A stretch of DNA of 64,000 nt from Spirochaetia bacterium (GCA_965198005.1 CBDAOI010000004.1:2126763-2190762), one strand, 5' to 3'. Counted from the stretch's first letter, positions 5,183-55,957 are shown. The notes: a model not told the origin generated them from the letters alone. Made by a program: numbers and translations.

Positions 5183-5929
5183 ATGTGCGGCCGGTACGCG
5201 TTGTATGCCGAACCCGAGGAGTTGATCGAAGCGCTTGGCATCGCGCGGGACGCCGCTACGCCGCACCTGCAGCCGCGCTACAATATAGCGCCGACCCAGG
5301 ACGTGCCGGTGGTCCTTTTCGAGCGTGGAATGCGCCGGTTGCGCGTGGTGCGCTGGGGGCTGGTGCCGGCGCAGTGGTCGGCTCCCGACGAGCGCCGCCC
5401 TCCATTGATCAATGCCCGCGCCGAGACCATCGCCGCACGGCCGGTATTCCGATCGGCGTTTGCCCGTACGCGCTGCATCGTTCCGGCCAGCGGCTACTTC
5501 GAGTGGTGCACCGAAGGACGCGTGCGGCAGCCCTACTACTTCACGCTGCGCTCCGGGGCTCCGCTGGCACTCGCGGGCGTCTACGACCTGTGGCAGAGGG
5601 GTGACCTGCCGCCGGTCGTCAGTTGCGCAATCGTTACCGTGCCGCCCAATCCGTTGAATGCGCGGCTGCACGACCGCATGCCCGCGGTGCTCGGCGCCTG
5701 CGATCCTGGCGATGCCATTCGACTGTGGCTCGACCCCGCTACGCCGCGCGCTCGGTTGGCGGACCTGCTGCGGCCGTTCGCCGGCGCAGCGATGGTCATG
5801 CACTCGGTCACGCCGCGCATGAACCACTACGCCTACGACGAGCCAGGCGCCGTGGCACCGCTCTCCCCCACCCCGCGGGCGCACGCCGCAACCGACGCCC
5901 CTCAAACCGAGTTCAAGTTTTCCGGATGA
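5183..5929 (+). CDS. SOS response-associated peptidase (SRAP/YedK/HMCES family)
   Basis: Starts MCGRY with the catalytic Cys2. Also carries YNIAPTQ and P....NAR.ET motifs. Length 248 aa. Confidence 0.85.
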   Translation: MCGRYALYAEPEELIEALGIARDAATPHLQPRYNIAPTQDVPVVLFERGMRRLRVVRWGLVPAQWSAPDERRPPLINARAETIAARPVFRSAFARTRCIVPASGYFEWCTEGRVRQPYYFTLRSGAPLALAGVYDLWQRGDLPPVVSCAIVTVPPNPLNARLHDRMPAVLGACDPGDAIRLWLDPATPRARLADLLRPFAGAAMVMHSVTPRMNHYAYDEPGAVAPLSPTPRAHAATDAPQTEFKFSG

Positions 5930-6021
5930 GACCGATGAGACCGATGAGATTGCGCGCGCAACAACCGCCAGTGCATGGTAGGGTGGCAAACGTGGACCTC
6001 CGAACTCCGGCCTTTACCGCG

Positions 6022-7437
6022 ATGTTCCGGGAGTACGACCTGCGCGGCCGCGTGTCCGACGCGGAGCTCAACCCCGATTCGGTGCGCGCCATCGCCAATG
6101 CATTCGGCCGACTGCTCGAACGCCGCGGCATCGACTCGGCGGTCGTGGGCCACGACCTCCGCCCGGCGTCGCCGGCCTTCAAGGACGCGGCGGTCGCCGG
6201 GTTGCGGGCGGCGGGCCGCCACGTGGTGGACGTCGGACTGACCATCAGTCCGGCCCTCTACTTCAGCCAGCACCATCTGCAGGTGCCCGGCGGCCTGATG
6301 GTCACCGCCAGTCACAATCCCAGCGAGTGGAGCGGGATGAAGCTCGCGCACGGCTATTCCCGGACCCTGGGCCCGGCCGAGATGCGGGAACTGCACGCGC
6401 TGGTACGCGCCGGAGAGCAGAGTGCCGGGGCCGGCCGGTATACCGTGACCGACACCCGTGCCCCCTACCTCGAGCGGGTCGCCGCCGGGACCCGGCTCGA
6501 GCGTCCCCTGCGGGTTGCCGTGGACTGCGGCAACGGCGGCGCCGGCGTGTTCGCGTACGAACTCCTGCAGCGCCTCGGCTGTCTGACCTTTCAACTCCAT
6601 TGCGACCCCGATGACAGCTATCCGCACTACTTTCCCAATCCGTCCGATCTGAAGGCGCGCCGGCGGCTCAGGCAGATCGTGACCCATCCCTACATCCGGG
6701 CCGACGTCGGGCTGGCGTTCGACGGCGACGGTGATCGCATCGGGGTGATCGACGAAGCCGGCGCCGACGTCTGGAGTGACCGGGTCCTTATTCTGCTGGC
6801 ACGCCGGCTGCTGGACGCGCAACCGGGCGCGGCCATCGTCTACGACGTCAAGTGTACGCGCGGCCTGGAGGAAGAGATCCGCGGTCGCGGCGGCACGCCG
6901 GTGATGTGCAAGACGGGACACTCGCACGTCAAGGCGAAGCTGCAGGAGATCGGCGCCGCGCTCGCCGGGGAGCGGAGCGGCCACATTTTTTTCCGCGCCG
7001 GCTACTACGGCTTCGACGACGCGCTGTACGCCGGCGTCCGCCTGCTGGAGGTGCTGGCGGCATCCGCGGGCTCCCTGTCGGAACTGGTGGCCACCACCCC
7101 CCGGTACGTGACGTCGCCCGAGATCGCCGCGCCCTGCCCGGACGACCGGAAGTACGGCGTGGTCGATGCGCTGGTGGCCGAATTCAAGCGCGAGTTCGGC
7201 GCCGCCGTGAACGACGTCAACGGCGCGCGCGTGGAGTTCGGCGACGGTTGGGGCCTGGTGCGCGCCTCCTCCAACCTGCCGGAGCTGGTGCTGATCTTCG
7301 AGGCCGGGAGTGAAGCGCGCGTGCGTGAAATCCACGCGCTGTTCCGCGCCCGCCTGGCCGCCTACCCCGAGATCGACCCGCACTGGCGCAATGATCCCTA
7401 CGTCGACGATCGGTCCATCGGCCGCGGCCGGCGCTGA
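6022..7437 (+). CDS. phosphomannomutase/phosphoglucomutase (alpha-D-phosphohexomutase)
   Basis: Active-site TASHNP, a metal-binding D.DGDR loop and a GE.SGH sugar-binding loop. Start placed at MFREYDLRG. In-frame alternative ATGs lie at 5926-5944 inside a tandem GAGACCGAT repeat that overlaps the SRAP stop. Confidence 0.85.
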   Translation: MFREYDLRGRVSDAELNPDSVRAIANAFGRLLERRGIDSAVVGHDLRPASPAFKDAAVAGLRAAGRHVVDVGLTISPALYFSQHHLQVPGGLMVTASHNPSEWSGMKLAHGYSRTLGPAEMRELHALVRAGEQSAGAGRYTVTDTRAPYLERVAAGTRLERPLRVAVDCGNGGAGVFAYELLQRLGCLTFQLHCDPDDSYPHYFPNPSDLKARRRLRQIVTHPYIRADVGLAFDGDGDRIGVIDEAGADVWSDRVLILLARRLLDAQPGAAIVYDVKCTRGLEEEIRGRGGTPVMCKTGHSHVKAKLQEIGAALAGERSGHIFFRAGYYGFDDALYAGVRLLEVLAASAGSLSELVATTPRYVTSPEIAAPCPDDRKYGVVDALVAEFKREFGAAVNDVNGARVEFGDGWGLVRASSNLPELVLIFEAGSEARVREIHALFRARLAAYPEIDPHWRNDPYVDDRSIGRGRR

Positions 7438-7590: not shown

Positions 7591-8265
7591 TCAGTCTTCG
7601 CTGGCCGGCGCGGCCAATCCATCCAGCAGCAACCCGGTGAACGCGTCCGCGAGTCGGTCGCCGGCAGCCAGCAGCGCCTGCATCTGGGTATCTCCCATCT
7701 GGGCGAGCAGGTCGATCCCGAGACTGATGGCGTACACCAGGCGGGCCACCACCGGCAGGTCCACCGGGCGGACCACCCCGGCCTCGACTCCGGCCTGCAG
7801 ACCGCGTTCCGCCTTGGCGACCCCCGGACGGATCAGGTGGCCATATACGTACTCCGTCAGCTCGGCGTCCGCCAGCACCGCGGACAGCAGCGCGGTCAAG
7901 GTTTGCCGCTGTGGCCGCCCGGTGCGGACCCGGGCACTGATCACGTGCCGATAGCGGCTGCGCAGGTCTTCGCCCGCGGCGCCCGGCGGCGCACCGGCAG
8001 CGCGAATCTCTTCGATCACCCGCTGCAGAACGCCCAGAAACAGATCGCGCTTGCTGTCGAAATGATGGTACAGCGCCCCTTCCGACAGTTTCGCGGCGGC
8101 CGCGATCGTCTTGGTCGTGGCCTGCTCGTAGCCGCGCTCGGTAAATACCCGCGTGGCTGCCCGAATGATGTGCTCGCGCCGACCTCTCCCGGCGCGCCGA
8201 CTTTCCGGTTTCGGTTCGGGCGCGGCCTGACGGCCCGTCTCCGATGGCTCTCGCTGCAACGCCAT
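7591..8265 (-). CDS. TetR/AcrR family transcriptional regulator
   Basis: N-terminal HTH with the signature I..AA..VF.ERGY..TT...IA.AA..S.GALYHHF. Start chosen at MALQREP (8265); the longer ORF start at 8403 is considered an over-extension. Confidence 0.8.
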   Translation of the reverse strand: MALQREPSETGRQAAPEPKPESRRAGRGRREHIIRAATRVFTERGYEQATTKTIAAAAKLSEGALYHHFDSKRDLFLGVLQRVIEEIRAAGAPPGAAGEDLRSRYRHVISARVRTGRPQRQTLTALLSAVLADAELTEYVYGHLIRPGVAKAERGLQAGVEAGVVRPVDLPVVARLVYAISLGIDLLAQMGDTQMQALLAAGDRLADAFTGLLLDGLAAPASED

Positions 8266-8392: not shown

Positions 8393-9952
8393 ATGCTGCC
8401 CAACCCGTCGTGGATCGGGTCCGCACTGAGCGATCTGCTGGTCGGAGATCCTGACCGCCACCGGCGTCCGGACTATCGGCAGGCGTTTTTCCTGGCACTG
8501 GCCAAGGTGCTTGGCGCAGCGGCCTGGGTCGACGCGCCGATCAATCAGAATGAAGTGAACGTGATCAAGACGCTGCTGCACGACCTTTCTCCACGCCTGA
8601 CGGCCCGCGAGCTGCAGCGGGTCGCGCGGTACCTCGAGGAGTCGGTCCCCGATGAACACTTTCGGGAGCTGGTGTCTCAGCTCGGCCGGTTCACGCGGCG
8701 CCGGGCGCGCCTGCGGTTTGCCGTGACCCGGCTGCTGGCGCTGCTGGCCGCGGACGGCACGCCGAACCAGCCGGAGCAGGAACTGTTCGAGCGGACCTGC
8801 GCGATTCTGGGCTGGAGTGGTGGTGATGGTGGTGGCGATGAGGAGCCGCCGGCGGCGAGCGCCCCGGGCCGCTCGCACCGGGTGCGGACGGGACTGCAGT
8901 TGGGCCGTCTCACCGGGCAGCCGGACGATGCTGCGCCACGGAGCCTGCTCGACCGGGTACGCACGGCCACCTGGGAGCGGCTGCAGGCGGGCGGCGGACA
9001 CGAGACTCCACCTGACAAACTGTACGTCCTGGCGGCGACGGTGGCGTTTCTGCGCGGCGCCCGCGTCGGGAACGTCGGCGAAGACGCGGAGCTGGTTGGC
9101 TTTACCGCAGCGGTGTCGGCGGTGCCCGACGACGTGGCGGAAGCAGCCCTTGCTGCGGCCCGGCAGTTCCCGGCGGCACCGGCCGAGCTGCCGGCGTTGG
9201 CCGCGGAGCTGCAGCGGCGCACGGATGCCACCGAGCTTGGTTCACTGGCGCAACTGTTGAACGCCATGGCCGACGGCGAGGCGGCACTGCGCCGGCTGCG
9301 TCAACTTGCCAGCCCCGCTGACCGCATGGCGGCCACCATTGACCACCTGGTGTACGGCGTGCCCGAACTGGAGGCCGGCGTCGCGTTGCTGCGCGAACAA
9401 TTCGGAGTGTCCGCCGTCTACGGGGGCCGGCATGAAGGACGCGGCACGCACAACGCGCTGCTCGGATTGGGCGGCGATGCATATTTGGAGGTGATCGCGC
9501 CGGACCCTTCCCAGCCGTCGAACCCGGGGGGCCGGAGGTTTCTCCTGGAAGACCTGGATCGGCCGCGTCTGATCACGTTCGCCGTCAGAGTTCGCGGCCT
9601 CGAGCAGCGGCGCGCACGCGCTGTCAGCCGCGGCTACGATCCGGGACCGGTGACTGCCATGAGTCGGCGGCGGCCGGACGGCGCGCTGTTGCGCTGGCAA
9701 CTGTGCCGCGCCCCGGAACCGCCGTTTGGAGGGGTCGTGCCGTTTCTGATCGATTGGGGAGCCACGCCCAGTCCCGCACACTCTGCGCCGGCCGGCTGCC
9801 GCCTGGACCGACTGCAGGTCGCTCATCCCGATCCGGACCGGGTCCGTCAGGTGCTGCACGCCATCGACGTAACGATTCCGGCTGAGCGCGGCCCGGCGCC
9901 CGCGCTGCATGCCGAGTTGCAAACCCCAAGAGGACGTGTCATGCTCCGTTAG
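8393..9952 (+). CDS. fusion protein: TerB-like N-terminal domain + C-terminal glyoxalase-like (VOC) domain
   Basis: Residues about 30-150 resemble a tellurite-resistance TerB / DjlA N-terminal domain. Residues about 300-440 carry GGRHEGRGTHNALLGLGGDAYLEVIAPDP, which matches the glyoxalase-like domain family. An Ala/Pro/Asp-rich linker sits between them. Confidence 0.55.
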   Translation: MLPNPSWIGSALSDLLVGDPDRHRRPDYRQAFFLALAKVLGAAAWVDAPINQNEVNVIKTLLHDLSPRLTARELQRVARYLEESVPDEHFRELVSQLGRFTRRRARLRFAVTRLLALLAADGTPNQPEQELFERTCAILGWSGGDGGGDEEPPAASAPGRSHRVRTGLQLGRLTGQPDDAAPRSLLDRVRTATWERLQAGGGHETPPDKLYVLAATVAFLRGARVGNVGEDAELVGFTAAVSAVPDDVAEAALAAARQFPAAPAELPALAAELQRRTDATELGSLAQLLNAMADGEAALRRLRQLASPADRMAATIDHLVYGVPELEAGVALLREQFGVSAVYGGRHEGRGTHNALLGLGGDAYLEVIAPDPSQPSNPGGRRFLLEDLDRPRLITFAVRVRGLEQRRARAVSRGYDPGPVTAMSRRRPDGALLRWQLCRAPEPPFGGVVPFLIDWGATPSPAHSAPAGCRLDRLQVAHPDPDRVRQVLHAIDVTIPAERGPAPALHAELQTPRGRVMLR

Positions 9953-10024
9953 GTAAGCGCCGGAACCGATAAAGACTGCCGTGAAAATTTTGCTGTTGCT
10001 ATACAAACTGTCCTGTGTTAACCT

Positions 10025-10067
10025 ATTGCAATAACCTGTACGTTCACCATATCGTGGGAGTGAACGT
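10025..10067. promoter_or_regulatory. candidate operator region: perfect palindrome TATTGCAATA plus inverted repeat ACGTTCAC-N12-GTGAACGT
   Basis: Read directly in a low-GC (about 45%) intergenic stretch upstream of a small gene that has an AAGGAG Shine-Dalgarno. A TATACA -10-like hexamer lies at 10000. Confidence 0.4.
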
Positions 10068-10090
10068 CGACTACTGTTTAAGGAGTTTCC

Positions 10091-10348
10091 ATGCCACGTT
10101 TTACGACTCGTCTCGTCAAGGAAGTCCAGGAACCGACGGTCACCGACAGCCTGGTCCAGAAGTACGGCGCCTATATCTCGCGCATCGACGGGAATTCCGT
10201 CGGCGTCTTGAAGTTTCGGGAGTCGGAAGACATCACGCTGGCGCGAGAAGCCCTGCGGCTTGCTGCAGAAAAGCAGGGCAAGGATCTCATTATTCGCCGT
10301 CCCCGCGGCGTTGACGGCGTGCTTGAGTTCCGATTGCGCAACCGCTAG
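10091..10348 (+). CDS. small hypothetical protein (85 aa), orphan
   Basis: AAGGAG sits 6 nt upstream of the ATG. The ORF is about 58% GC versus about 70% in its flanks. A strong downstream hairpin follows. No family recognised. Confidence 0.5.
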   Translation: MPRFTTRLVKEVQEPTVTDSLVQKYGAYISRIDGNSVGVLKFRESEDITLAREALRLAAEKQGKDLIIRRPRGVDGVLEFRLRNR

Positions 10349-10377
10349 GTCCGAGTACGCTCGCACAATCGAACCAA

Positions 10378-10425
10378 CCACCAGACAGCCCGCGCACCGT
10401 CCCGGCGTGCGGGCTGTCTGGTGGG
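10378..10425 (+). terminator. GC-rich hairpin (terminator-like, no U-tract)
   Basis: CCAGACAGCCCGC..GCAC-loop-GTGC-GGGCTGTCTGG gives a stem of about 16-20 bp immediately after the small ORF. Confidence 0.4.
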
Positions 10426-10452
10426 TCGGTGTAGTCTGCCTGCTGGGCACGG

Positions 10453-11148
10453 ATGATTTCGATCAGCAATGTCACCAAGGTGTATCGTAGCGGCACCACC
10501 GAGGTCGCCGCTTTGCGCGGCGTCAGCCTGGAGGTGGAGCGCGGCGAATTCCTCGCTATCGCCGGACCGTCCGGTTCCGGCAAGTCCACGCTGCTCAACC
10601 TGATCGGCTGTCTGGACGTCGCTACCGGCGGCGACGTGCTGATTGACGGCCAGGCGGTAGCGGGCCTGAGCCGCAAGCAGCTCGCGCTGTTCCGGCGCCA
10701 CCATCTCGGATTCGTGTTCCAGTCGTTCAACCTGATCCCCGTCCTCACCGCCTACGAAAACGTCTCCTTCGCGCTCGCGCTGACCACCCGAGACGCCAAG
10801 GAGGTGCGCTCGCGCAGCCTGCAAATGCTCAAGCAGGTCGGCTTGCAGGACATGACCGACCGCCGGCCCGGTGAGCTCTCCGGCGGCCAGCAGCAACGGG
10901 TGGCGATCGCGCGGGCGCTGGTCAAGGAGCCGCAGATCGTGCTCGCGGACGAGCCCACCGCCAACGTCGATTCCGAGACCGGCGAGGGGCTGCTGGAACT
11001 GATGCGCCGGCTCAACCGGCAGCGCGGCTCCACCTTCATCTTCTCCACCCACGATGCCATGGTGATGGACTATGCCGACCGCTTGGTGCGGTTGCAGGAC
11101 GGCCGCGTCTCCGGCGACGAGCGCCGCACGGCCGCGGCCGGGAGCTGA
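10453..11148 (+). CDS. ABC transporter ATP-binding protein (LolD/MacB/FtsE-like)
   Basis: Walker A GPSGSGKST, Q-loop, signature LSGGQQQRVAIARAL, Walker B ILADEPT and an H-loop. Confidence 0.9.
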   Translation: MISISNVTKVYRSGTTEVAALRGVSLEVERGEFLAIAGPSGSGKSTLLNLIGCLDVATGGDVLIDGQAVAGLSRKQLALFRRHHLGFVFQSFNLIPVLTAYENVSFALALTTRDAKEVRSRSLQMLKQVGLQDMTDRRPGELSGGQQQRVAIARALVKEPQIVLADEPTANVDSETGEGLLELMRRLNRQRGSTFIFSTHDAMVMDYADRLVRLQDGRVSGDERRTAAAGS

Positions 11149-11153
11149 GCGCC

Positions 11154-12497
11154 GTGGCCTCGACCTCGTCCGCCGCCGTGACCGCGGTGCCGCACGGCCC
11201 ACGCTCCGCCTCCGCCGGCGGCCATGACCTGAAGTTTCTGCTCCGGCTGGCCTGGAAAAACCTCAGCCGCCACCGCCGCCGCACCGTCATCACCGCCGGC
11301 GCCCTGGCGGTGAGCGTCGCCATGTTCATCTTCATGGACTCGATGCTGCGCGGCATCGACACCGAATCGCAGCGCAACCTGGTGTGGTACGAGACCGGCA
11401 CCGGCCGCATCGTCAGCTCGGATCAGTACCGCGACCTGCGGCGGCCCCGGCTGCGACACGAGATCGTCGACTACCGCCCGCTGAGCGCGTGGTTGAACGA
11501 GCGCGGCGTGGCCAACGCCCCGCGCATCACCTTCACCGGCGAGCTGTTCTTCGGCGAGGGCGCGCTGCCGGTGCGGCTGGTCGGTATCGATCCGGCCAGC
11601 GACCCGCAGGTGTTCCGGCTGCCCGAAGCCCTGCTGCCCGGCAGCGAGTTCCTTGCGGCCGGCGTCCCGGGACTGCTGCTGGGCGCCTGGATGGCCGAGG
11701 ATCTGGGGATCGCCGCCGGCGACTTCGTGGAGGTGCGTACCCGCACCCGCCACGGCGCGGTGCAGACGCTGGAGCTGGAAGTGGTGGGCATCCTGCTCAG
11801 CCCCAACCCGACCATCAACCGGGGTGTGGGGTTTCTGCCGCTCGACGTGGTCCAGTACGACCTCGACCTGGCGGGCGTTACCGAGGTGGTCCTCGGCGCG
11901 TTGCGCACGTCCATGGGACGCCGCATCGCGGTGCCGTCCGGCGCGGTCCTGAAGCGCGAGATCGAACGTCTGAACGCCGACCTGGCAGGTGCGATGCCCG
12001 GCGTCACCGCGGCCGGATGGCACCAACTGGCGCCCGATTACCTGGCCATAGTCGAGTCCAAGCAGTCGAGCAACGGGCTGCTGCTGTTCCTGATCTTCCT
12101 GATCGCGGCGGTGGGCATCTCCAACACCATGCTGATCGCGGTGTATGAACGGTTCCGCGAGTTCGGGATGATGCGCGCCCTGGGCATGGACGACGCCGCG
12201 GTCCGCGCCACCATGGTGTTCGAGGCCGGTGCGATCGGCCTGATCGGAGCGCTGGCGGGACTGGTGGTGGGCGCCGCCGCCACCTGGTGGCTGGTCAACT
12301 GGGGCCTCGACCTGAGCGGGCTGTACGGCAACGTCAACATCGGCTACCGGGTGACCGGCATCTTCCGCGGCGCCTGGAACCCGGGCATCATGCTCACCGC
12401 AGTGATCTTCGGGGTGGTCGCGAGCATGCTGATCGCCCTGCTGCCGGCGCGCCGGGCGCTCAAGCTCGACGTGGCGCAGTGCCTGCGCTACGAGTAG
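11154..12497 (+). CDS. ABC transporter permease, FtsX/MacB-type (LolC/E-like), copy 1
   Basis: N-terminal TM, a large periplasmic domain and a C-terminal FtsX 3-TM bundle. About 75% identical to the permease at 13850..15121. Confidence 0.85.
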   Translation: MASTSSAAVTAVPHGPRSASAGGHDLKFLLRLAWKNLSRHRRRTVITAGALAVSVAMFIFMDSMLRGIDTESQRNLVWYETGTGRIVSSDQYRDLRRPRLRHEIVDYRPLSAWLNERGVANAPRITFTGELFFGEGALPVRLVGIDPASDPQVFRLPEALLPGSEFLAAGVPGLLLGAWMAEDLGIAAGDFVEVRTRTRHGAVQTLELEVVGILLSPNPTINRGVGFLPLDVVQYDLDLAGVTEVVLGALRTSMGRRIAVPSGAVLKREIERLNADLAGAMPGVTAAGWHQLAPDYLAIVESKQSSNGLLLFLIFLIAAVGISNTMLIAVYERFREFGMMRALGMDDAAVRATMVFEAGAIGLIGALAGLVVGAAATWWLVNWGLDLSGLYGNVNIGYRVTGIFRGAWNPGIMLTAVIFGVVASMLIALLPARRALKLDVAQCLRYE

Positions 12498-12532
12498 CGG
12501 TGGCGCTACGAGTAGCGGTGGCGCTACGAGTG
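12484..12532 (+). repeat. 18-bp tandem repeat x2.7 (GCGCTACGAGTAGCGGTG) spanning the stop codon of permease copy 1
   Basis: Read directly. Each unit contains an in-frame stop (TAG, TAG, TGA) preceded by RYE codons. Confidence 0.75.
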
Positions 12533-12546
12533 ACCGGGAGCGGGGC

Positions 12547-13845
12547 GTGAAGCTGTGGCGCATCGCCGTGCGCAACGTGGCGCGCAACAAGCGCCGCTCG
12601 CTGCTGTCCGGCTCCGCCATCACCGTGGCGACGCTGTCCGTGGTGCTGCTGTTCTCGGTGCTCGGCGGCATGCTCGGCGATCTGGTGGCCACCACGCTGA
12701 CCTACGACAGCGGGCACGCCCGCGTGCGCCATGCCGAGTACGGCCGCTACGAGACCCTCAACCCGGTGCACCTGGCCGTGACCGACGCCGGCAGCGTGGT
12801 AGAACGGCTGCAGGAGCTGCCGGAAGTGACCGGCGTGCTGCCGCGGGTGCGCTTCGCCGGCGCCATCTATCGCGAAGACCGCAACCACGGCGCCTTCGGC
12901 CTGGGCCTCGACTTCGCCCGCGAGATCGAGGTGGCGCGCGACCGGCTGCCGCAGATGAGCGGCGCCGCCGCCGGCAGCGCCACCCTGGAGCAGTTCGCCC
13001 GCGCCTGGCAGCTCGAGGTGCACGGCGGCAGCCTGCCACGCGCCGGCGAGCGCGAGCTGCTGATCAGTGCGGCGCTGGCCGAGGAGCTGGGACTGGCGGC
13101 GGGCGACAAGCTGACGATCCTCACCCGCACCGCGCTGCTGAGCACCCAGGCCTGGACCTTCACGGTGAGCGGCGTGGTCGGCTTTCCGATCGGCGGCATG
13201 CGCGGCCTGCTGCTGGCGCCGCTGGACACGGTGCAGCGCTTCCTCAAGTTGACCGCGGCCGACGCGGTCACCGAGATCCTGCTCTACACCGGCAGCGAGG
13301 AGGAGGTGCCGGCGCTCACCGAAGCGTTGGCATCCGCGCTGCCGGAGCGCGATCCGGGGCTTGCCGTGCAGGCGTGGACCGACACCAACCCGATGTTCTC
13401 GATGCTCCAGGTCGCCAGCCGGATCTACGACGTCATCGGGCTGTTCTTCTTCCTGCTGGCCACCACGGTGATCGTCAACACCACAATGATGGTAGTATTC
13501 GAACGCATGAAGGAGATCGGCACCATCGCCGCGCTGGGGATGACCGGCAACCAGATTACGCGCCTGTTCTTCCTGGAAGCACTGTTCATCGGCATGGGCG
13601 CGGCGCTGCTTGGGGTGGCGCTGGGCTGCGCCATCGTGCTGCCGCTGTCGCAGGTGGGGATCGACTACAGCGCCGCCATGGAAGGCGTGGAGCTCAACAT
13701 GTCGGACGTGTTGTTCCCCCGGCTCAGCGTGCGCTCCACCGTGCTGGTATTCCTGTACTCCATTGCGGTGACCGCGGCGGCTTCCTACTGGCCGGCGCGC
13801 AAGGCGGCCCGGCTGCAGCCGGTGGTGGCGTTGCGCGCCGCCTGA
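12547..13845 (+). CDS. ABC transporter permease, FtsX/MacB-type, copy 2 (divergent)
   Basis: GTG start. Same FtsX topology, but the periplasmic domain differs from copies 1 and 3. Confidence 0.8.
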   Translation: MKLWRIAVRNVARNKRRSLLSGSAITVATLSVVLLFSVLGGMLGDLVATTLTYDSGHARVRHAEYGRYETLNPVHLAVTDAGSVVERLQELPEVTGVLPRVRFAGAIYREDRNHGAFGLGLDFAREIEVARDRLPQMSGAAAGSATLEQFARAWQLEVHGGSLPRAGERELLISAALAEELGLAAGDKLTILTRTALLSTQAWTFTVSGVVGFPIGGMRGLLLAPLDTVQRFLKLTAADAVTEILLYTGSEEEVPALTEALASALPERDPGLAVQAWTDTNPMFSMLQVASRIYDVIGLFFFLLATTVIVNTTMMVVFERMKEIGTIAALGMTGNQITRLFFLEALFIGMGAALLGVALGCAIVLPLSQVGIDYSAAMEGVELNMSDVLFPRLSVRSTVLVFLYSIAVTAAASYWPARKAARLQPVVALRAA

Positions 13846-13849
13846 GTCG

Positions 13850-15121
13850 ATGACCGCGACGCTGTTCCGGCTGGCCGTGCGCAATCTCGGCCGCCACCGC
13901 CGCCGCACGTTGATAACCGCCGCGGCGCTGGCGGCCGGGATCGCGCTGTTCATCTTCATGGATTCGATGCTGCGCGGGATGGACTCCGAGTCGCAGCGCA
14001 ACCTGGTGTGGTACGAGACCGGCTCCGGCCGCATCGTCGGCCGCGCGCAGCACGCCGAGCTGGAGCGGCCGGCCCTGAAACACGAGATCGTCGAGTATCG
14101 GCCGCTGCTCGCCGCGCTGGCGGAGCGCGGAGTGGCCGCGGCCCCCCGCATCCGTTTCACCGGCGAGCTGTTCTTCGGCGAGGGCTCGCTGCCGGTGCGC
14201 CTGGTGGGCATCGACCCGGCGCTCGATCCCGAGGTGTTCCGGCTGCCCGGAAGCGTGCTGCCCGGAGGTGGGTACCTTGAGAGCGGCGTTCCGGGGCTGC
14301 TGCTCGGCGCCTGGATGGCCGAGGACCTGCAGATCGCCGTGGGCGACTTCGTCGAGGTGCGGACCCGTACCCGCCATGGCGCGGTGCAGACCCTGGAGCT
14401 GGAGCTGGTGGGCATCCTGCGCAGCCCGAACCCCACCATCAACCGGGGAGTGGGCTTCCTGCCCCTCGACGTCGCCCAGCTCGACCTCGACCTGGAGGGG
14501 GTAACGGAAATCTCTCTCGGCGCGCTGCGCACCCGGCTCGGACGTCCCGTCCCGGTGCCGGTGGGGGCGACCCTGGAACGCGAGGTTCAGCGCCTGAACG
14601 AGGACCTGGCAACCGCCTTCCCGGGCGTGGTGGCGGTGGGCTGGACCGAGCTGGCGCGGGACTACCTGGCGGTGTTGGAGACGGACAGCGCGGGCACCAG
14701 CATCATGCTGCTCCTGGTGTTTCTGATCGCCGCGGTGGGCGTGTCCAACACCATGCTGATCGCGGTGTACGAACGGATCCGTGAGTTCGGGACGATGCGT
14801 GCGCTGGGCATGGACGACGGTGCGATTCGCGCCACGATGGTGCTGGAGGCGGGAGCGATCGGTCTGCTGGGGTCGCTGGCGGGGGTGGCAGTGGGCGCCG
14901 TCGCAACCTGGTGGCTGGTGAACTGGGGCATCGACATGAGCGGAATGTACGGCGACGTAAGCGTCGGCTACCGGGTGACCGGGATCTTCCGCGGTGCCTG
15001 GAATCCGGGGACCATGGTGGCGGCGGTGATCTTCGGGATTGCGGCCAGCATGGCGATCGCGCTGCTGCCGGCGCGCCGGGCGCTCAAGCTCGACGTCGCG
15101 CAGTGTCTGCGCCACGAGTAG
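13850..15121 (+). CDS. ABC transporter permease, FtsX/MacB-type, copy 3 (paralog of copy 1)
   Basis: The N-terminus LAVRNLGRHRRRTLITAAALA...FIFMDSMLRGMDSESQRNLVWYETGSGRIV and the C-terminus ARRALKLDVAQCLRHE closely parallel copy 1. Confidence 0.85.
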   Translation: MTATLFRLAVRNLGRHRRRTLITAAALAAGIALFIFMDSMLRGMDSESQRNLVWYETGSGRIVGRAQHAELERPALKHEIVEYRPLLAALAERGVAAAPRIRFTGELFFGEGSLPVRLVGIDPALDPEVFRLPGSVLPGGGYLESGVPGLLLGAWMAEDLQIAVGDFVEVRTRTRHGAVQTLELELVGILRSPNPTINRGVGFLPLDVAQLDLDLEGVTEISLGALRTRLGRPVPVPVGATLEREVQRLNEDLATAFPGVVAVGWTELARDYLAVLETDSAGTSIMLLLVFLIAAVGVSNTMLIAVYERIREFGTMRALGMDDGAIRATMVLEAGAIGLLGSLAGVAVGAVATWWLVNWGIDMSGMYGDVSVGYRVTGIFRGAWNPGTMVAAVIFGIAASMAIALLPARRALKLDVAQCLRHE

Positions 15122-15177
15122 CGGCCAGGTTGGACGGCCCGCGACCGGATCGAGTACCTTTCCGGAGGGGGTGGTTG

Positions 15178-15933
15178 ATGATGAAGACTCGGCGATGCGC
15201 GCGCGGCGGAATGCTGCTGTCGCTGGTGTTTCTGACCGGCGCCGTACCGCTCGGCGCTCTGACCGGAGCGGAGGTGATCCAGCAGATGGAGCGCAATGAG
15301 CGCCATTCCTCGGTGCACTCCACCGGCGCGCTGGAGATCAGCGACCGGTTCGGAACCCGCACCAAGACCTTCATCTCGACCGCGGTGGGCGACGACCGCT
15401 CATTGCTGGAGTTCACCAACCCGGAGGAAGCGGGACAGAAGATCCTGCGCCTGGACGACGATCTCTATCTCTACTTTCCGGAGGCGGAAGAGGTGATCCA
15501 TCTGCAGGGCGCGGCACTGCGCGAGAACGTCCTCGGGTCCGACTTCTCGTACGAGGACATGACCGGAGAGGGCAGCCTGCTGGAAGACTACCAGGTGGAA
15601 CTGGAGGGCACCGAGCCGATCGACGGTCACGACTGTTACCGGCTGCGGCTCACCGCCACCCGGCGCGACGTGGTGTATCCGATCCAGGTGGTGTGGATCG
15701 ACGCCGAGCGGTTCGTCACGCGCCGCGTGGAGCAGTTTTCCCGGCGCGGCCGGCCGCTCAAGCAGATGACGATCTCCGACTACCGCGAAGTGGGCGACAA
15801 GCTGATTCCGGTGCGGCTGGAGATGTCGGATCTGATGAAGAAGGACTCGCGCACGATGTTCCTGATCGAGACCATCGAGGTGGACATCGCGATCGACGAG
15901 AGTCTGTTCTCGCTGGAGGAGCTGACCTTTTGA
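15178..15933 (+). CDS. LolA-like outer-membrane lipoprotein-sorting protein family (putative)
   Basis: Signal peptide MMKTRRCARGGMLLSLVFLTGAVPLGA. Mature domain of about 220 aa with LolA-like (half-barrel) family features. It immediately follows the Lol-like ABC genes. Confidence 0.6.
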   Translation: MMKTRRCARGGMLLSLVFLTGAVPLGALTGAEVIQQMERNERHSSVHSTGALEISDRFGTRTKTFISTAVGDDRSLLEFTNPEEAGQKILRLDDDLYLYFPEAEEVIHLQGAALRENVLGSDFSYEDMTGEGSLLEDYQVELEGTEPIDGHDCYRLRLTATRRDVVYPIQVVWIDAERFVTRRVEQFSRRGRPLKQMTISDYREVGDKLIPVRLEMSDLMKKDSRTMFLIETIEVDIAIDESLFSLEELTF

Positions 15934-17075
15934 GCGCGCTGGCGGGCGGGCGGGCGGTGGCGGCGCTGCTGCTGGGCCTGCTGGCGGCGGCGTCCGCGAG
16001 CGCTGATCTGCGTACCGTCGTGACGGTGGAGGCGCGCCTGACCGGGCTGTCCGACCCGGGCGGCGTACCGCTGCTCGTCGGCGGCGGCAGCGCCCGCCTC
16101 GATCTGGCAGCGACCGGCAACCGCAACGTGCGCGGCCAGCTCAGCCTGAGCGCCGAGCTGCGGCGTACGGAGGACGCGGCCGGGGCGCCAGCCGCGGTCG
16201 AGGTGGAGCGCGCCTTTGTGCGCGCCCGGCTGCCCGGGTTCCGCCTCACCGCGGGCAAGACCCGTCTGGCCTGGGGCCGGGGCCGGTTGTTCAACGCCGG
16301 CGACATCCTGTTCGGGCAACGGCCGGCGTTCGCGGCCGGCGCCGGCGAGTTCCTCACGGCCGCCGACTGGCTGGTGGCCGCCTACGTGCCGTTGGGCCGG
16401 CTGTCGTTCCTGGAACTGGTCGCGTTGCCGCCGCTCGACCCGTTCACCATCGACCGCACCGACGCCGGCGGCCGCCTCCTGCTACGGCTGGGAGAGCTGA
16501 CCGTGGAGAGCGGCTACCTGTACGCAGCCGCGCGCGCGGCCGCGGCGCAGGCGCGGGAGCGGGAGCACCGCGGCTACCTCAGTCTGAAGGGAGCGGCCGC
16601 CGGCATCGACTGGCATCTGAGTGCCGGCACCGCGCTGCCCGCCACTCCCGGGGCCGATCTGCGCCGGGCGGCCGAGCAGCACCTGCTGCTCACCGGCGGC
16701 GGCCTCGGGTTCCTGGATCTCGGGCCGGAAGCCGGGGTCGTCATGCTGCTGCTCGAAGCGGGCGTACGGCCGTGGCGCGCGTGGCAGGACACCACTCCCC
16801 CGCCCTCCCCGACGCTCGACCACTACGGCGTGTACCTGTTTCCCGAAGTGGGCTACAGCCCCGCCGACGGCTTGAACCTGTCGCTGAGCGGCGTGCTGTC
16901 TCCGATCGACAGCTCGGGGGTCGCCGCCGCCGGCGCCTCCTGGAACATCCTGCAGGGACTGACCCTGGGGCTGTACACTTCGGTGACGTATGGCCACGCC
17001 GACGCCACCTTCGCCTGGGAGCGCCCGGGCGGACTGGCCGCTACCCTGCTCGCCCGCTACGTATTCGGCTCGTGA
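15930..17075 (+). CDS. secreted hypothetical protein (possible outer-membrane protein)
   Basis: The TTG start overlaps the upstream stop (TTTTGA). Signal peptide LSALAGGRAVAALLLGLLAAASASA. Gly/Ala-rich beta-type sequence ending YVFGS. Confidence 0.45.
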   Translation: MSALAGGRAVAALLLGLLAAASASADLRTVVTVEARLTGLSDPGGVPLLVGGGSARLDLAATGNRNVRGQLSLSAELRRTEDAAGAPAAVEVERAFVRARLPGFRLTAGKTRLAWGRGRLFNAGDILFGQRPAFAAGAGEFLTAADWLVAAYVPLGRLSFLELVALPPLDPFTIDRTDAGGRLLLRLGELTVESGYLYAAARAAAAQAREREHRGYLSLKGAAAGIDWHLSAGTALPATPGADLRRAAEQHLLLTGGGLGFLDLGPEAGVVMLLLEAGVRPWRAWQDTTPPPSPTLDHYGVYLFPEVGYSPADGLNLSLSGVLSPIDSSGVAAAGASWNILQGLTLGLYTSVTYGHADATFAWERPGGLAATLLARYVFGS

Positions 17076-17111
17076 TGAGACCGCCGCACGTGATCTCGGG
17101 TATACTGCGGC

Positions 17112-17429
17112 ATGCTGCACGTAATCGTCACCATGCACGTCAAGCCGGGCCGTCTCGAGGAATTCCTGGTGCTGGCGCGCGCACTCGGAAAGCTGGCCGA
17201 GGCCGAAGCAGGCTGCGTGCGTTACCAGTACACGGTTGACACCCCCTCGCCGCTCTCGATTCAGGATCCGGTAGACCCCCACCGGGTGACGCTGATCGAG
17301 CAATGGGAGTCCCCCGCGACGCTGGCCACGCATCTTCAGGCACCACACATGAAGCAGTACGGGCCGCCCATGAACGAACTGCGTACCGGCGGCCTCACCG
17401 CCCGCGTCACCCGCCCGATCGACTCCTGA
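17112..17429 (+). CDS. antibiotic biosynthesis monooxygenase (ABM) family protein / putative quinol monooxygenase
   Basis: 105 aa with the ABM ferredoxin-like signature: ...V.V.PG..EEF......L......E.GC..Y......P......E.W.S..A...H. Confidence 0.65.
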   Translation: MLHVIVTMHVKPGRLEEFLVLARALGKLAEAEAGCVRYQYTVDTPSPLSIQDPVDPHRVTLIEQWESPATLATHLQAPHMKQYGPPMNELRTGGLTARVTRPIDS

Positions 17430-17512
17430 GAGATTCGCCGGCCGCGCGCGCCCAACCCTCCGCCAGGGTACGACTGCGCCAACTGGCGGAACGCGTTGCC
17501 GGCGGCTATCTC

Positions 17513-17905
17513 ATGCTGCTCCGCGTGAGCGCCGTGGTGCTGATCGTGGCCGCGGCCGCGGCCGTGTGCGGGCTCATCATCGCCACGCCCTTGTGGCTGT
17601 TCGCGACTCGGGCCACCGCCTCTTACAACGTGTTCGTCGCGGTCGTCGCGGTCGCCGCGCTGGGCGGGACGCTGGCTGTGCGCCTGGCGCGCCGTACGCG
17701 CCAGGCGCACAGCGGCCGCCGCGCATTGGTTTCCGGAGCGCAGGTCCTGGCCCGCACGGTCGCGGCGATCGCAATTGCCTGCGCGCATCTGCTGGCCTTC
17801 ACCCGCTGGGGGTTGATCGCTGGACTGGTGGGCCTGCCGGTCACGCTCGGGGTGCTCGGGGTGCTCCTGTTCGGGGGCCGCCGTCCGCGCTCCGAGTCGT
17901 TCTGA
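17513..17905 (+). CDS. hypothetical membrane protein
   Basis: Four predicted TM helices with Ala/Leu/Val-rich segments. The function is not recognised. Confidence 0.35.
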   Translation: MLLRVSAVVLIVAAAAAVCGLIIATPLWLFATRATASYNVFVAVVAVAALGGTLAVRLARRTRQAHSGRRALVSGAQVLARTVAAIAIACAHLLAFTRWGLIAGLVGLPVTLGVLGVLLFGGRRPRSESF

Positions 17906-44888: not shown

Positions 44889-45401
44889 ATGATCTCTGAG
44901 AACATCACCCACGCCCTGAACGACCAGATCACCAACGAGCTGAATTCCAGCTACATCTACCTGGCGATGTCCGCACACTTCTCGGCGCTCAATCTCAACG
45001 GCTTCGCCCACTGGTTTCGCATCCAGTACGAAGAGGAGCGCGGCCATGCGCTACGGATCTATGATCACGTCCTGGACCGGGGGGGAACGGTGAACCTCGC
45101 GGCCCTGGCGCAACCCTCCCTGGAGTGGGACTCTCCGCTGTCGGCGTTTACCGAGGCGCGCGACGAAGAGCGCCGCATCGCCGGCAGCATCGATGAATTG
45201 ATCGAGCTGGCGGTGGCCGCGAAGGATCACGCGACGCGCATCCTGCTGGACTGGTTCGTGAGCGAGCAGGTCGAGGAGGAGCGGATCACCACCGAGATCG
45301 TCGACCAGTTGCAGATGGTCGGCGACTCCCGGATCGGACTGTTCATGATCGACGAGCGCCTCAAGAGCCGGGTCCCGGACGAGGAGCCGCCGGGCGGCTG
45401 A
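44889..45401 (+). CDS. ftn: ferritin (non-heme, Ftn-like)
   Basis: LN.QI..EL.SSY.YL.MS..F, EE..HA and a four-helix ferroxidase E/H ligand pattern. Confidence 0.85.
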   Translation: MISENITHALNDQITNELNSSYIYLAMSAHFSALNLNGFAHWFRIQYEEERGHALRIYDHVLDRGGTVNLAALAQPSLEWDSPLSAFTEARDEERRIAGSIDELIELAVAAKDHATRILLDWFVSEQVEEERITTEIVDQLQMVGDSRIGLFMIDERLKSRVPDEEPPGG

Positions 45402-46527
45402 CCGGCGCGCCGGTCAGCGCCACGGTGACCGGCTGGCCGGTGTGGAATCGCCTGCAGGCGGGTACGTGCACCGTGAGTTCGCGCACGGCCGGCAGGTCGT
45501 CGTCCGCCGCGCCGGCTGAATCGTCGACCCTGACCCGCAGTTCGCGGAACTCACCCATGAACCGTTGCGCCTGAATCACGCCGCGCAGCCCGGGCGGGAG
45601 ATGGCCGTTCGCCGAGTCCCCGCCGCTGTCCGTCGCGGCCGCGACCAGCAGTTGTGCGGGCCGCACGGATACCGCCGGCCCGCCGTTCAGCCGGAACGGC
45701 ACGGCATTGGCCAGCCGGCCCAGCGCGCACCGCCACGCCGCACCCACCCGCCGTACCGCGAGCAGATTCGCCGCCCCCAGGTATTCGGCCACGAACGCGT
45801 TGGCGGGCGCGGAGTACAGGCTCTCCGCATCGCCCACCTGCTCGATCCGACCGCGATGCAGCAGCGCGATCCGGTCGGCGACGGTGAACGCTTCGTCGCG
45901 ATCGTGGGTCACGAACACCGCCGTGGTCCGGGTGGCGCGCAGCACTTCGCGCACCTCGTGCAACAGGTGCCCCTTGAGCACCGGATCGAGATTGTTGAAC
46001 GGCTCATCGAACAGCAGCAGCGCCGGCTGCGGTGCCAACGCACGCCCGATCGCGGCCCGTTGCGCCTGACCGCCTGATACCTCGTGCGGATAGCGGTCGC
46101 GCAGGTCGGTGATGCGCATCAACCCGAGCGTGTGCTCGGCCCGCTGTCGCCGCCGCGGCTCGGGCAGGCGCCGCAGGCCGAAGCTGACGTTCTGAAGAAT
46201 CGTGAGGTGCGGCAGCAGCGCGGTCTCCTGAAACACCACTCCCACCGCCCGGTCCTCCGGGGGAACGGACACGCGCCCGCCGGCGACCAGGGTTCCGCCC
46301 AGATGGATGGTGCCGGCGCCGGGCTGATCGAACCCCGCCACCAGCCGCAACAGGGTGGTCTTGCCGCTGCCGCTCTCGCCCAGCAGGGCCAATACCGCCC
46401 CGCGCTCCAGTGCCAGGGAGACGCCGGCCAGAGCCGGACGCGGATTGCCGGCGTACCGCTTGCCGACACCGCTCAACTGCAAGTAGGCCGGTTCCTGTGT
46501 CCCGCGGCCGCGCCCGCCGGTGACCAT
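45361..46527 (-). CDS. ABC transporter ATP-binding protein, Fe3+/polyamine importer type (FbpC/PotA-like) with C-terminal TOBE-like domain
   Basis: Walker A GESGSGKTT, signature VSGGQAQRAAIGRAL, Walker B LLFDEPF. The 3' end overlaps the convergent ferritin gene by 41 nt. Confidence 0.85.
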   Translation of the reverse strand: MVTGGRGRGTQEPAYLQLSGVGKRYAGNPRPALAGVSLALERGAVLALLGESGSGKTTLLRLVAGFDQPGAGTIHLGGTLVAGGRVSVPPEDRAVGVVFQETALLPHLTILQNVSFGLRRLPEPRRRQRAEHTLGLMRITDLRDRYPHEVSGGQAQRAAIGRALAPQPALLLFDEPFNNLDPVLKGHLLHEVREVLRATRTTAVFVTHDRDEAFTVADRIALLHRGRIEQVGDAESLYSAPANAFVAEYLGAANLLAVRRVGAAWRCALGRLANAVPFRLNGGPAVSVRPAQLLVAAATDSGGDSANGHLPPGLRGVIQAQRFMGEFRELRVRVDDSAGAADDDLPAVRELTVHVPACRRFHTGQPVTVALTGAPVSRPAAPRPGPGS

Positions 46528-46540
46528 ACGCCGGCGCCGG

Positions 46541-53860: not shown

Positions 53861-54082
53861 GTGAGCGCAGAGCTGATCGGAATAATTGCCGCGCCGATCG
53901 TCCTCGGTACCGCCATGCTCGCGTCGATACGCAGCGTCCGCCACGACGTGCGCGGCGTCCGCGACGAGCTACGAGGCGAGATTCACGGCCTCCGCAACGA
54001 AATGAACTCCTTCCTATCCCATTTGCGTCGTTATTCTCCGCGCCAGATGGTCGAAGTCTTCATGGCACTTCTGTCGAATTGA
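53861..54082 (+). CDS. small hypothetical membrane-anchored protein (questionable)
   Basis: GTG start after GGAGAGG. It overlaps the 3' end of the convergent DUF4276 gene by 69 nt, so it may be spurious. Confidence 0.2.
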   Translation: MSAELIGIIAAPIVLGTAMLASIRSVRHDVRGVRDELRGEIHGLRNEMNSFLSHLRRYSPRQMVEVFMALLSN

Positions 54083-54580
54083 GGCTACTCTCCGAGAGGC
54101 CTCCTCTCCCAACGGACCACGTCCACGGCCCGGATCATTGGCCACACCCCGTTCTCGAGCAAGCACGGCAAAGTATCGCTCCTTCACGGATACTTCACTG
54201 CGGACGTCGGACCACCTCCAGTCGCTAGGGAGATCAAGACCGGCGAGGACCCAGGTTTCCAACTCCTCCCACGCATTTTCGGCAAGGAACCGTCGGGGCA
54301 GGTTACCGAACTCTTTTTCGATTTGGTCGAGACGCCGGCGCCGCGAAGCAACACCGTCCCGGTCAACGCACAGGATGAACAGATCGGTCATCCCATCATA
54401 CTGTTCGACGATTTCCGCCACCCGTTCTGACTTCAACGCCTCATCAACGCCTCCAAGCAACGGATCCGTGCACACCGTGACGGTCGCCCGCACACTCAGA
54501 GATCGGAACAACCGCTGGAAAAGAGGCCTGAGAATATACTGATCATTCCGAAAGTCCTCAGGAATAATGAGGACGTTCAT
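54014..54580 (-). CDS. DUF4276/RloB-like TOPRIM-fold protein (AbiLii/AriB-like partner of the adjacent ATPase)
   Basis: N-terminal IIPED (TOPRIM Glu), LFILCVDRDGV (DxD) and the E.W..LA motif typical of the RloB/DUF4276 family. The start overlaps the ATPase stop (ATGA). Lower GC than the genome. Confidence 0.6.
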   Translation of the reverse strand: MNVLIIPEDFRNDQYILRPLFQRLFRSLSVRATVTVCTDPLLGGVDEALKSERVAEIVEQYDGMTDLFILCVDRDGVASRRRRLDQIEKEFGNLPRRFLAENAWEELETWVLAGLDLPSDWRWSDVRSEVSVKERYFAVLARERGVANDPGRGRGPLGEEASRRVASIRQKCHEDFDHLARRITTQMG

Positions 54581-55851: not shown

Positions 55852-55957
55852 GGGCGTCGGTGCGGGTGCGTCGGCGGCATACCGGAAGTCATGGCGCAGA
55901 TTATACCGTAAGGCCAACCAACTAGTCTGGCAACGGCACCGTCGAGGTGGACGGGCG

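Follow-up and report, generated by a model that had tools for sequence, protein, structure and literature searches.

A spirochaete cassette encoding a Lol-like ABC transporter, a LolA3/DUF1329-type carrier and a predicted outer-membrane barrel

Several described envelope systems resemble a six-gene operon that we analysed in a 64,000-nucleotide stretch of DNA from a Spirochaetia bacterium (GCA_965198005.1 CBDAOI010000004.1:2126763-2190762). This whole stretch is called the window here. The six genes are intact, lie on the plus strand between positions 10453 and 17075, and encode an ATP-binding cassette (ABC) ATPase, three FtsX-type permeases, a LolA-like carrier and a predicted outer-membrane barrel. 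The LolCDE–LolA(–LolB) systems, in their E. coli and LolF variants, are built alike, with one gene for the nucleotide-binding domain (NBD), two paralogous permeases of FtsX/MacB fold and a soluble carrier of the LolA superfamily. The window differs in its outer-membrane partner, predicted to be an 18-stranded barrel and not the lipoprotein LolB, and in its carrier, which is of PF17131/LolA3 type. It also differs in that some lineages with the cassette have three permease genes, whose split into A and B types is separate from that of LolC and LolE.

A second relative is the BBJ23–BBJ29 locus on plasmid lp38 of Borrelia burgdorferi, known from a computational description only and proposed to be an exporter of a non-polar ligand (PMC13078400). 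It too is a spirochaete cluster, in which an ABC ATPase and a MacB/LolE-like permease accompany a LolA-like periplasmic protein and an outer-membrane barrel. Unlike the window, it has a single permease, tetratricopeptide repeat (TPR) proteins and a barrel of Omp85 type (BBJ25). No TPR-family match was seen among the annotated window neighbours. MacAB-TolC has in common with the window the FtsX fold of four transmembrane (TM) helices, the MacB-type periplasmic core and the mechanotransmission type of ABC transporter. The window has neither a MacA adaptor nor a TolC duct; its NBD is a separate polypeptide, its permeases would be heteromeric and its 18-stranded barrel is predicted to be monomeric. 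Compared with the DevBCA-type glycolipid exporters, the window ATPase scores under the DevA cut-off and the operon has no DevB adaptor gene.

Modules that combine an MMPL or resistance-nodulation-division (RND) pump with PF17131 or DUF1329 and with DUF1302 form a third group (Castellaniella AmeABCD, P. putida PP_0765/0766 and a Prevotella locus). They also place a LolA-superfamily protein and then a barrel beside an exporter. AmeABCD brings together an RND pump with DUF1302 and DUF1329 proteins, and growth on monoterpenes requires ameB (PMC6394551). Such modules run on an RND/MMPL pump, whereas the engine in the window is a type VII ABC transporter.

The pump, the carrier and the predicted barrel

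An earlier sequence-only reading of this DNA had listed one ATPase, three consecutive FtsX permeases, a LolA-like protein and a secreted 381-residue protein. Open reading frame (ORF) listing and family scans recovered all six genes in this order and direction (Table 1), and two ENA metagenome contigs carry identical operons. The intergenic spacing along the operon is 5, 49, 4, 56 and −4 nt; the 4-nt overlap of carrier stop and barrel start is also present in L003 and L006, two loci of the survey described below. The barrel gene starts with a TTG within the TTTTGA that closes the carrier gene, as had been read, and GGAGGAG lies 7 nt before it. Homologues of the barrel begin at the same position, with Met. 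The translated ATPase has recognizable Walker A (GPSGSGKST), signature (LSGGQQQR), Walker B (IVLADEPT) and H-loop (STHD) motifs.

Table 1. Features of the operon, in window coordinates
Feature	Coordinates	Strand	Length	Family evidence and remarks
ABC ATPase, separate NBD of LolD/DevA/MacB-NBD type	10453..11148	+	231 aa	ABC_tran 124.6 bits
Permease A1 (permease 1), FtsX/MacB type	11154..12497	+	447 aa	FtsX 75.7 bits
Perfect 18-nt tandem repeat, 2.6 copies of GCGCTACGAGTAGCGGTG	12485..12531	+		TRF score 94, 100% matches
Permease B (permease 2), FtsX/MacB type, single-copy partner	12547..13845	+	432 aa	FtsX 58.5 bits
Permease A2 (permease 3), A1 paralog	13850..15121	+	423 aa	FtsX 74.4 bits
Periplasmic LolA3/DUF1329-type carrier	15178..15933	+	251 aa	PF17131 (LolA_like / TP_0789-like) 180 bits
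Predicted 18-stranded outer-membrane beta-barrel	15930..17075	+	381 aa	Family without Pfam model; TTG start

All three permeases passed the cut-off of 25.5 bits for the C-terminal 4-TM domain FtsX (PF02687). For the periplasmic core domain MacB_PCD (PF12704, cut-off 27 bits) the scores were 39.4 for B, 30.5 for A2 and 23.4 for A1, the last being just under the cut-off. We count A1 as having this core because it is 75% identical to A2 over its full length. The system thus has the FtsX domain, the MacB-type periplasmic core and the intact cognate NBD of the type VII (MacB/FtsX-fold) ABC superfamily.

The closest sequences of solved structure were sought with phmmer in the Protein Data Bank (PDB). 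For permease B these were LolF (1.3e-14), LolC (1.5e-8) and LolE, in a range from 1e-14 to 4e-8. For permease A, represented by A2, they were LolE (3.3e-13), YtrF (1.3e-12) and LolF, in a range to 3e-10; MacB matched permease A at only 4e-4, the weakest among the type VII relatives. These matches hinted at a one-to-one correspondence of A to LolE and B to LolC, which profiles built from 57 A and 47 B sequences rule out. Because each profile ranks E. coli LolE over LolC, the division into A and B types is independent of that between LolC and LolE, and no equivalent can be named for LolC, whose Hook recruits the carrier of triacylated lipoproteins in LolCDE.

All NCBIfam equivalog scores fell well short of their cut-offs. 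With the lolCE model TIGR02212 (cut-off 362.45 bits) we obtained 110.5 bits for B over its full length, 65.9 for A1 and 60.4 for A2, and the LolE and LolC exception models gave 28–73 bits on the permeases against cut-offs of 439–540. The best models for the ATPase were LolD (TIGR02211, 232.8 against 307.75; NF008639, 217.8 against 360) and DevA (TIGR02982, 230.6 against 295.8), and both stayed under their cut-offs. The same was true of FtsE on the ATPase (TIGR02673, 213.7 against 264.85), of the FtsX models on the permeases (18–31 against 225–255) and of MacB (NF007826, 15–25 against 966). A membrane-fusion adaptor (MacA/HlyD family, DevB) or a TolC-type duct was found neither in the operon nor in its flanks. 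By these comparisons the pump is placed in a Lol-like branch of the type VII ABC transporters and is not LolCDE, MacAB, DevABC or FtsEX. This agrees with the sequence-only reading, which had set the system apart from canonical LolCDE and had named clear homology to a known family, such as the FtsEX or DevCA-type exporters, as a refutation. The proposal of heteromeric FtsX-type permeases served by one ATPase and a LolA-like periplasmic protein is also supported.

The carrier scored 180 bits with PF17131 against a cut-off of 30 (E 4.6e-53), and the precomputed annotation of an identical protein is PF17131 as well. Its best structural match is 4z48, annotated as DUF1329 family, and it matches the extended open beta-barrel of solved PF17131 members, a LolA-superfamily fold. 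The N-terminus, MMKTRRCARGGMLLSLVFLTGAVPLGA/LTGAEV, is a type-I (Sec) signal peptide with no lipobox. By pattern matching, as distinct from SignalP, a lipobox is missing in 52 of 53 carrier homologues from cassettes. Canonical LolA, with LolA-like proteins as the closest structures, was not what we found. The carrier is therefore a LolA-like family protein with a signal peptide, as the earlier reading had it, but of LolA3/DUF1329 type and not LolA proper.

LolA3 proteins have been studied elsewhere. LolA3-PG is reported to bind LolB-PG only weakly and to have neither the LolA arginine nor the LolB leucine, and a separate function is presumed for it (PMC13103446). In F. johnsoniae, deletion of lolA3 left gliding and type IX secretion unaffected (PMC11885536). 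The passages searched describe no ABC partner for Porphyromonas gingivalis LolA3 (PGN0947, PDB 9tp6) or F. johnsoniae LolA3. For T. pallidum, the models of Hawley et al. make TP0784–TP0786 components of Lpt and TP0790 an RND transporter resembling AcrB (PMC8407342). We infer from the locus numbering that TP0789 lies beside TP0790.

The 381-residue protein matched no Pfam or NCBIfam model. AlphaFold2, run on a 26-sequence alignment, predicted a signal helix followed by 18 beta-strands (pLDDT 78, pTM 0.72); MOMP and chitoporin are named with this prediction. The protein is better described as a predicted 18-stranded outer-membrane beta-barrel than as the secreted Gly/Ala-rich protein proposed before. 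Homologues outside the clade of the window have an aromatic residue at the C-terminus; the window protein ends in YVFGS. A word-index search returned 66 homologues, and the few with source names are from metagenome-assembled genomes of Spirochaetaceae or Spirochaetales. An exhaustive HMMER search of 1.84 billion cluster representatives gave 348 family members at E<=1e-3. The family is thus real and of middle size, and neither Pfam nor NCBIfam has a model for it.

Half of the family members have sub-threshold Pfam matches to Caps_assemb_Wzi; the Wzi score was 13.6 bits against a cut-off of 30.1, which does not place the barrel in that family. Its identity to the 18-stranded barrels Wzi, OccD–OccK and AlgE is 8–14%. 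Those proteins belong to capsule, alginate or nutrient-uptake loci, whereas the window barrel lies in an ABC/LolA-like cassette. The Borrelia proteins were considered too. Homology of the barrel to BBJ25 or BBJ29 was rejected (hhalign probability <1%), as was membership of BBJ28 in PF17131 (no Pfam match at E<=0.01). A tblastn search of plasmids with the window carrier returned no Borrelia record.

Conservation of the cassette and history of its permeases

Species-representative genomes, one per species, were scanned with the barrel alignment; the scan depends on two peptide patterns. It returned 54 loci, every one from Spirochaetota, and neighbouring ORFs were classified with the window proteins. 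The whole cassette was visible at 41 loci. The gene order ATPase-A-B-carrier-barrel is found at 27 of these, ATPase-B-A-carrier-barrel at six, and ATPase-A-B-carrier-barrel-A at four. The order of the window, ATPase-A-B-A-carrier-barrel, recurs in L012 (2/41), and two loci have an extra A upstream of the ATPase. Exactly one B is present in all 41 complete cassettes; A is single in 33 and doubled in eight. Carriers of the cassette include Marispirochaeta, Oceanispirochaeta, Salinispira, Sphaerochaeta and Treponema sp., and a single Marispirochaeta genome has two cassettes (L020, L025).

The sequence-only reading had pointed to a comparison across related genomes for whether triple permeases are conserved. 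The five-gene cassette is conserved; the third permease is limited to the eight loci just mentioned. That reading had also taken the middle permease for a divergent copy captured by tandem duplication. No complete cassette has a second B and eight of 41 have a second A, and the middle permease is therefore the ancestral partner. The A–B pair is Spirochaetota-wide, and the A gene is the one that was duplicated.

A1 and A2 are identical at 316 of 419 positions (75%) without gaps and have the C-terminus ARRALKLDVAQCLR(Y/H)E in common, in agreement with the approximately 75% first noticed. Their nucleotide identity is 79.8%. Permease B is 29% identical to A2 and 25–26% to A1. A1 has a 28-residue cytoplasmic extension at its N-terminus, which is also present in the positional ortholog L003_pA. 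Neither copy is disabled, which had been raised as a way in which the earlier description could fail: both frames are open, and the codon positions account for 79/49/127 of the 255 nucleotide differences. The rate of synonymous substitution (dS) for the pair is 0.44, and the ratio of nonsynonymous to synonymous rates (dN/dS) is 0.39. Purifying selection acts on both.

A neighbour-joining tree of A-type permeases (403 columns, 200 bootstraps) separates the two copies. Clade A1 unites window permease 1 with L012_4144 (88% identical) and L013, and clade A2 unites window permease 3 with L012_6726 (89%), L007 and the six loci of B-A order; each has a bootstrap of 100%. Only A1 has been kept in L013, and only A2 in the L006 group, which has the B-A order. 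The clade II genomes (L003, L014, L016 and L017) have an extra A of their own after the barrel, with support of 100%, and clade II itself is monophyletic at 95%. Another independent A pair is present in Sphaerochaeta L040 (100%); the A copies of L015 are weakly resolved, with pair support of 52%. The tree indicates at least three independent duplications of A (in clade I, in clade II and in Sphaerochaeta L040) and none of B. Gene conversion or concerted evolution may account for the pattern between clades I and II in place of independent duplication. Within clade I, gene conversion was considered as the source of similarity between copies of one genome and rejected, A1 and A2 being reciprocally monophyletic at 100%.

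The duplication had been called recent. A dS of 0.44, the separate clades at 100% and the 88–89% ortholog of each copy in L012 speak against this. By these measures it is old relative to speciation and recurrent, and the dS implies that A1 and A2 have long been retained together. Of the 17 fixed differences between A1 and A2, nine lie within the 69 residues of TM1 and TM2. In LolCDE, the TM1 and TM2 helices form the cavity for the lipoprotein substrate.

The tandem repeat GCGCTACGAGTAGCGGTG (Table 1) takes in the final four codons of A1 together with its stop, and its TAGCGG is also found after the A2 stop. The repeat is probably a scar of recombination or slippage at the A1/B junction, left by a rearrangement. 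In L016 the first A is split into overlapping ORFs (5324–6103 and 5854–6720, together 5324–6720), and the extra A after the barrel is intact. The split reflects either incipient decay into a pseudogene or a frameshift introduced by assembly.

PF17131 proteins recur beside inner-membrane exporters outside the cassette, often followed by an outer-membrane protein. The order is MMPL-PF17131-DUF1302 in Prevotella, TetR-MMPL-PF17131 in Haliovirga, and polyketide synthase (PKS)-MMPL-PF17131 in Sulfitobacter. Burkholderia gladioli has ATPase-FtsX-PF17131-hypothetical (475 aa) amid genes for a fatty-acyl-AMP ligase, a desaturase and PKS. B. thailandensis has PF17131-ATPase-permease (832 aa)-hypothetical (380 aa).

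The last of these proteins and the window barrel have the motif G(K/R)xRhxWGxGxxF in common. In hhalign, the invariant barrel motif LTAGKTRLAWGRGRLFNAGD is matched in B. thailandensis by VRIGRQRIAWGTGRFFSPLD (E 3e-4, probability 38%). A hidden Markov model of 135 barrel sequences, searched against a five-sequence database, gave in the same region 15 bits for B. thailandensis, 9 for the Prevotella DUF1302 protein and 3 for B. gladioli. The barrel and DUF1302 have a G(K/R)xxhxWG motif region in common, and no Pfam threshold was reached. The hhalign comparison with the Prevotella DUF1302 protein was not significant, and among 26 barrel-family members there was no DUF1302 Pfam match at E<=1.

A proposed export route and its rivals

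From the gene content, folds, conservation and paralog history observed in this analysis we lean, with modest confidence, towards an accessory Lol-like trans-envelope export route for hydrophobic or lipid-anchored cargo. Two copies of the one ATPase would power a heterodimer of an A-type and a B-type permease, as in a type VII mechanotransmission transporter. The resulting (ATPase)2·A·B complex would take amphiphilic or lipid-anchored cargo from the outer (periplasmic) leaflet of the inner membrane, as LolCDE does. Closure driven by ATP would push the cargo into the soluble LolA3/DUF1329-type carrier. The co-translated 18-stranded barrel would then receive it from the carrier and either insert it into the outer membrane or let it pass through. 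The stoichiometry, the transport direction, the hand-over steps and the class of cargo are inferred here by analogy with the described systems. Specialised lipid or lipoprotein export, suggested from the sequence at the outset, is still the most reasonable reading.

In the lineage of the window, A1·B and A2·B would act as alternative extractors that share the ATPase, the carrier and the barrel. The presence and absence of genes point to this pairing, and alternative complexes are the most likely arrangement. We regard B as obligate and A as alternative because B is always single, A1 and A2 form separate clades, relatives keep either one, A was duplicated repeatedly, and differences are found in TM1 and TM2. 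An accessory rather than a housekeeping role is suggested by the genome with two cassettes, the nearby GntR and TetR genes, the weak binding of LolB by P. gingivalis LolA3 (PMC13103446) and the lack of a gliding or type IX secretion phenotype on lolA3 deletion in F. johnsoniae (PMC11885536).

Several points weigh against the proposed route. DUF1302/DUF1329 sets have been tied to monoterpene tolerance (PMC6394551) and to uptake or catabolism of, and growth on, fatty esters (bioRxiv 10.1101/2020.07.04.188060), and the proposals differ in direction and role. The kinship of the barrel to DUF1302 and Burkholderia proteins is at motif level and is only suggestive. The enrichment of differences in TM1 and TM2, built on three A1 sequences, is a weak hint. 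A1·A2 pairs or homodimers are possible. A lipid, a glycolipid, a lipoprotein and a hydrophobic xenobiotic are all candidate cargo.

The same genes could instead be a divergent housekeeping Lol pathway, with A and B as LolC and LolE, the ATPase as LolD, the PF17131 protein as LolA and the barrel replacing LolB as acceptor. Although Lol permeases are the nearest solved relatives and LolD and lolCE are the top NCBIfam models, the equivalog scores are far under what the models demand, both for the permeases (110, 66 and 60 bits; cut-off 362) and for the ATPase (233; cut-off 308), and the preference of both permease profiles for E. coli LolE leaves no one-to-one orthology. The carrier has the LolA-superfamily fold, and spirochaetes have no identified LolB (PMC13078400, PMC11326224); yet LolA3 does not pair with LolB (PMC13103446). 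Gliding and type IX secretion, which showed no defect on lolA3 deletion, depend on outer-membrane lipoproteins (PMC11885536). The neighbouring regulators and the two-copy genome suggest an accessory system, and the species-representative scan, which depends on two peptide patterns, returned no member of the barrel family from Borrelia or T. pallidum. We consider the housekeeping pathway unlikely.

A system for inducible efflux or detoxification, comparable to MacAB-TolC or AmeABCD, would use the barrel as an exit pore for antimicrobial lipopeptides, for hydrophobic xenobiotics or for secondary metabolites that the cell itself makes. This overlaps the accessory export route in mechanism and differs from it mainly in cargo. 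Regulators point this way: in the window a TetR gene stands two genes before the operon, in the L006 group and L048 one is adjacent to the cassette, and GntR is upstream in 19 distant loci. So does the company of PF17131 elsewhere, with MMPL/RND pumps beside PKS in Sulfitobacter and beside TetR in Haliovirga, and in B. gladioli among fatty-acyl-AMP ligase, desaturase and PKS genes; the requirement for ameB during growth on monoterpenes gives a precedent (PMC6394551). The lack of a membrane-fusion adaptor and of a TolC-type duct tells against efflux, and a soluble carrier with a hydrophobic groove suits a lipid-like hand-over better than a continuous conduit. We rate efflux as rather unlikely. 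Least probable, in our view, is that duplication left a redundant third permease, without a role of its own and heading for loss, and that the functional unit is simply A·B. A single A in 33 of 41 cassettes, the loss of either copy in relatives, the split first A of L016 and a fairly relaxed dN/dS of 0.39 would fit such decay. However, both window copies are intact and have 88–89% orthologs in the same order in L012, and the dS of 0.44 means long co-retention. Independent duplication of A at least three times, and never of B, and the clustering of fixed differences in TM1 and TM2 also count against it.

Surroundings of the operon and significance

In the stretch of up to 3.5 kb upstream of the cassette ATPase, the 19 distant loci (L019–L059) encode a GntR-family regulator and 13 loci an SPFH/Band_7 protein (for example L056 2653–3153 and L053 3757–4932). 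Neither is found upstream in the window. The nearest regulator there is the TetR gene at 7591–8265 on the minus strand. Such neighbouring regulators, together with the Marispirochaeta genome that has two cassettes, fit with an accessory, regulated system. The flanking genes of the window (an 85-residue ORF, ABM, a 130-residue ORF, PBP1A and GcvH) were considered as parts of the system and set aside, their synteny being limited to the near clade. A promoter and terminator scan of 9900–17600 gave nothing over the shuffled expectation.

The 85-residue ORF (10091–10348) has no Pfam match and lies directly before the operon; it occupies the same position in L001–L003 and L012–L017 only. Between its stop (10348) and the ATG of the ATPase (10453) there is a highly stable hairpin at 10363–10439. 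The RNA minimum free energy of 10349–10452 is −62.4 kcal/mol (z = −6.1), with a perfect core stem of 17 bp. The hairpin has no T-tail and its core stem sequence is unique in the window. It may end the upstream gene or mask the ribosome-binding site of the ATPase. Further upstream, 8393–9952 encodes a 519-residue protein with an N-terminal TerB and a C-terminal Glyoxalase_3 domain. The syntenic gene of L003 encodes 220 residues with Glyoxalase_3 alone, and the window protein looks like a fusion or extension.

Two other places in the window were recorded. The block at 54001–56000 has a guanine-plus-cytosine content of 0.579, against about 0.68 elsewhere, and contains a minus-strand gene (54577–55917) for a 446-residue AAA_21/AAA_15/SMC_N ATPase. 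OLD/AbiEii-like defence genes or mobile genes typically combine these domains, and horizontal acquisition is possible. A second ABC ATPase, 39% identical to that of the operon, lies beside a BPD_transp_1 permease at 45361–48283 on the minus strand. This pair is an ordinary binding-protein-dependent importer and is unrelated to the operon.

New here are a spirochaete-wide ABC/LolA3/barrel cassette, an unannotated barrel family and the recurrent duplication of one permease subunit. The cassette is present in dozens of spirochaete genomes, including those of the cultured Candidatus Marispirochaeta associata JC231 and Sphaerochaeta sp. PS 1. Crystal structures of LolA3/PF17131 proteins exist, and the cassette sets such a carrier between a Lol-like ABC extractor and a dedicated barrel, which gives LolA3-type proteins a concrete, testable three-step pathway. 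That ABC and MMPL engines alike are accompanied by a PF17131 protein and then a barrel points to a general module for delivery from the periplasm to the outer membrane. Natural variants with A1 only, A2 only or both offer a comparison for which permease subunit selects cargo.

The cassette bears on how lipids and lipoproteins are delivered to the outer membrane of spirochaetes, in which LolB has not been identified. In a bolder version, which we hold to be improbable, the cassette would be a self-contained, LolB-independent route that places a class of lipoprotein or glycolipid in or on the outer membrane of many free-living and symbiotic spirochaetes. The barrel would then be the long-sought acceptor or flippase and the A subunit the cargo selector. 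If this were true, lineages with two A permeases would export two classes of cargo through one carrier and one barrel.

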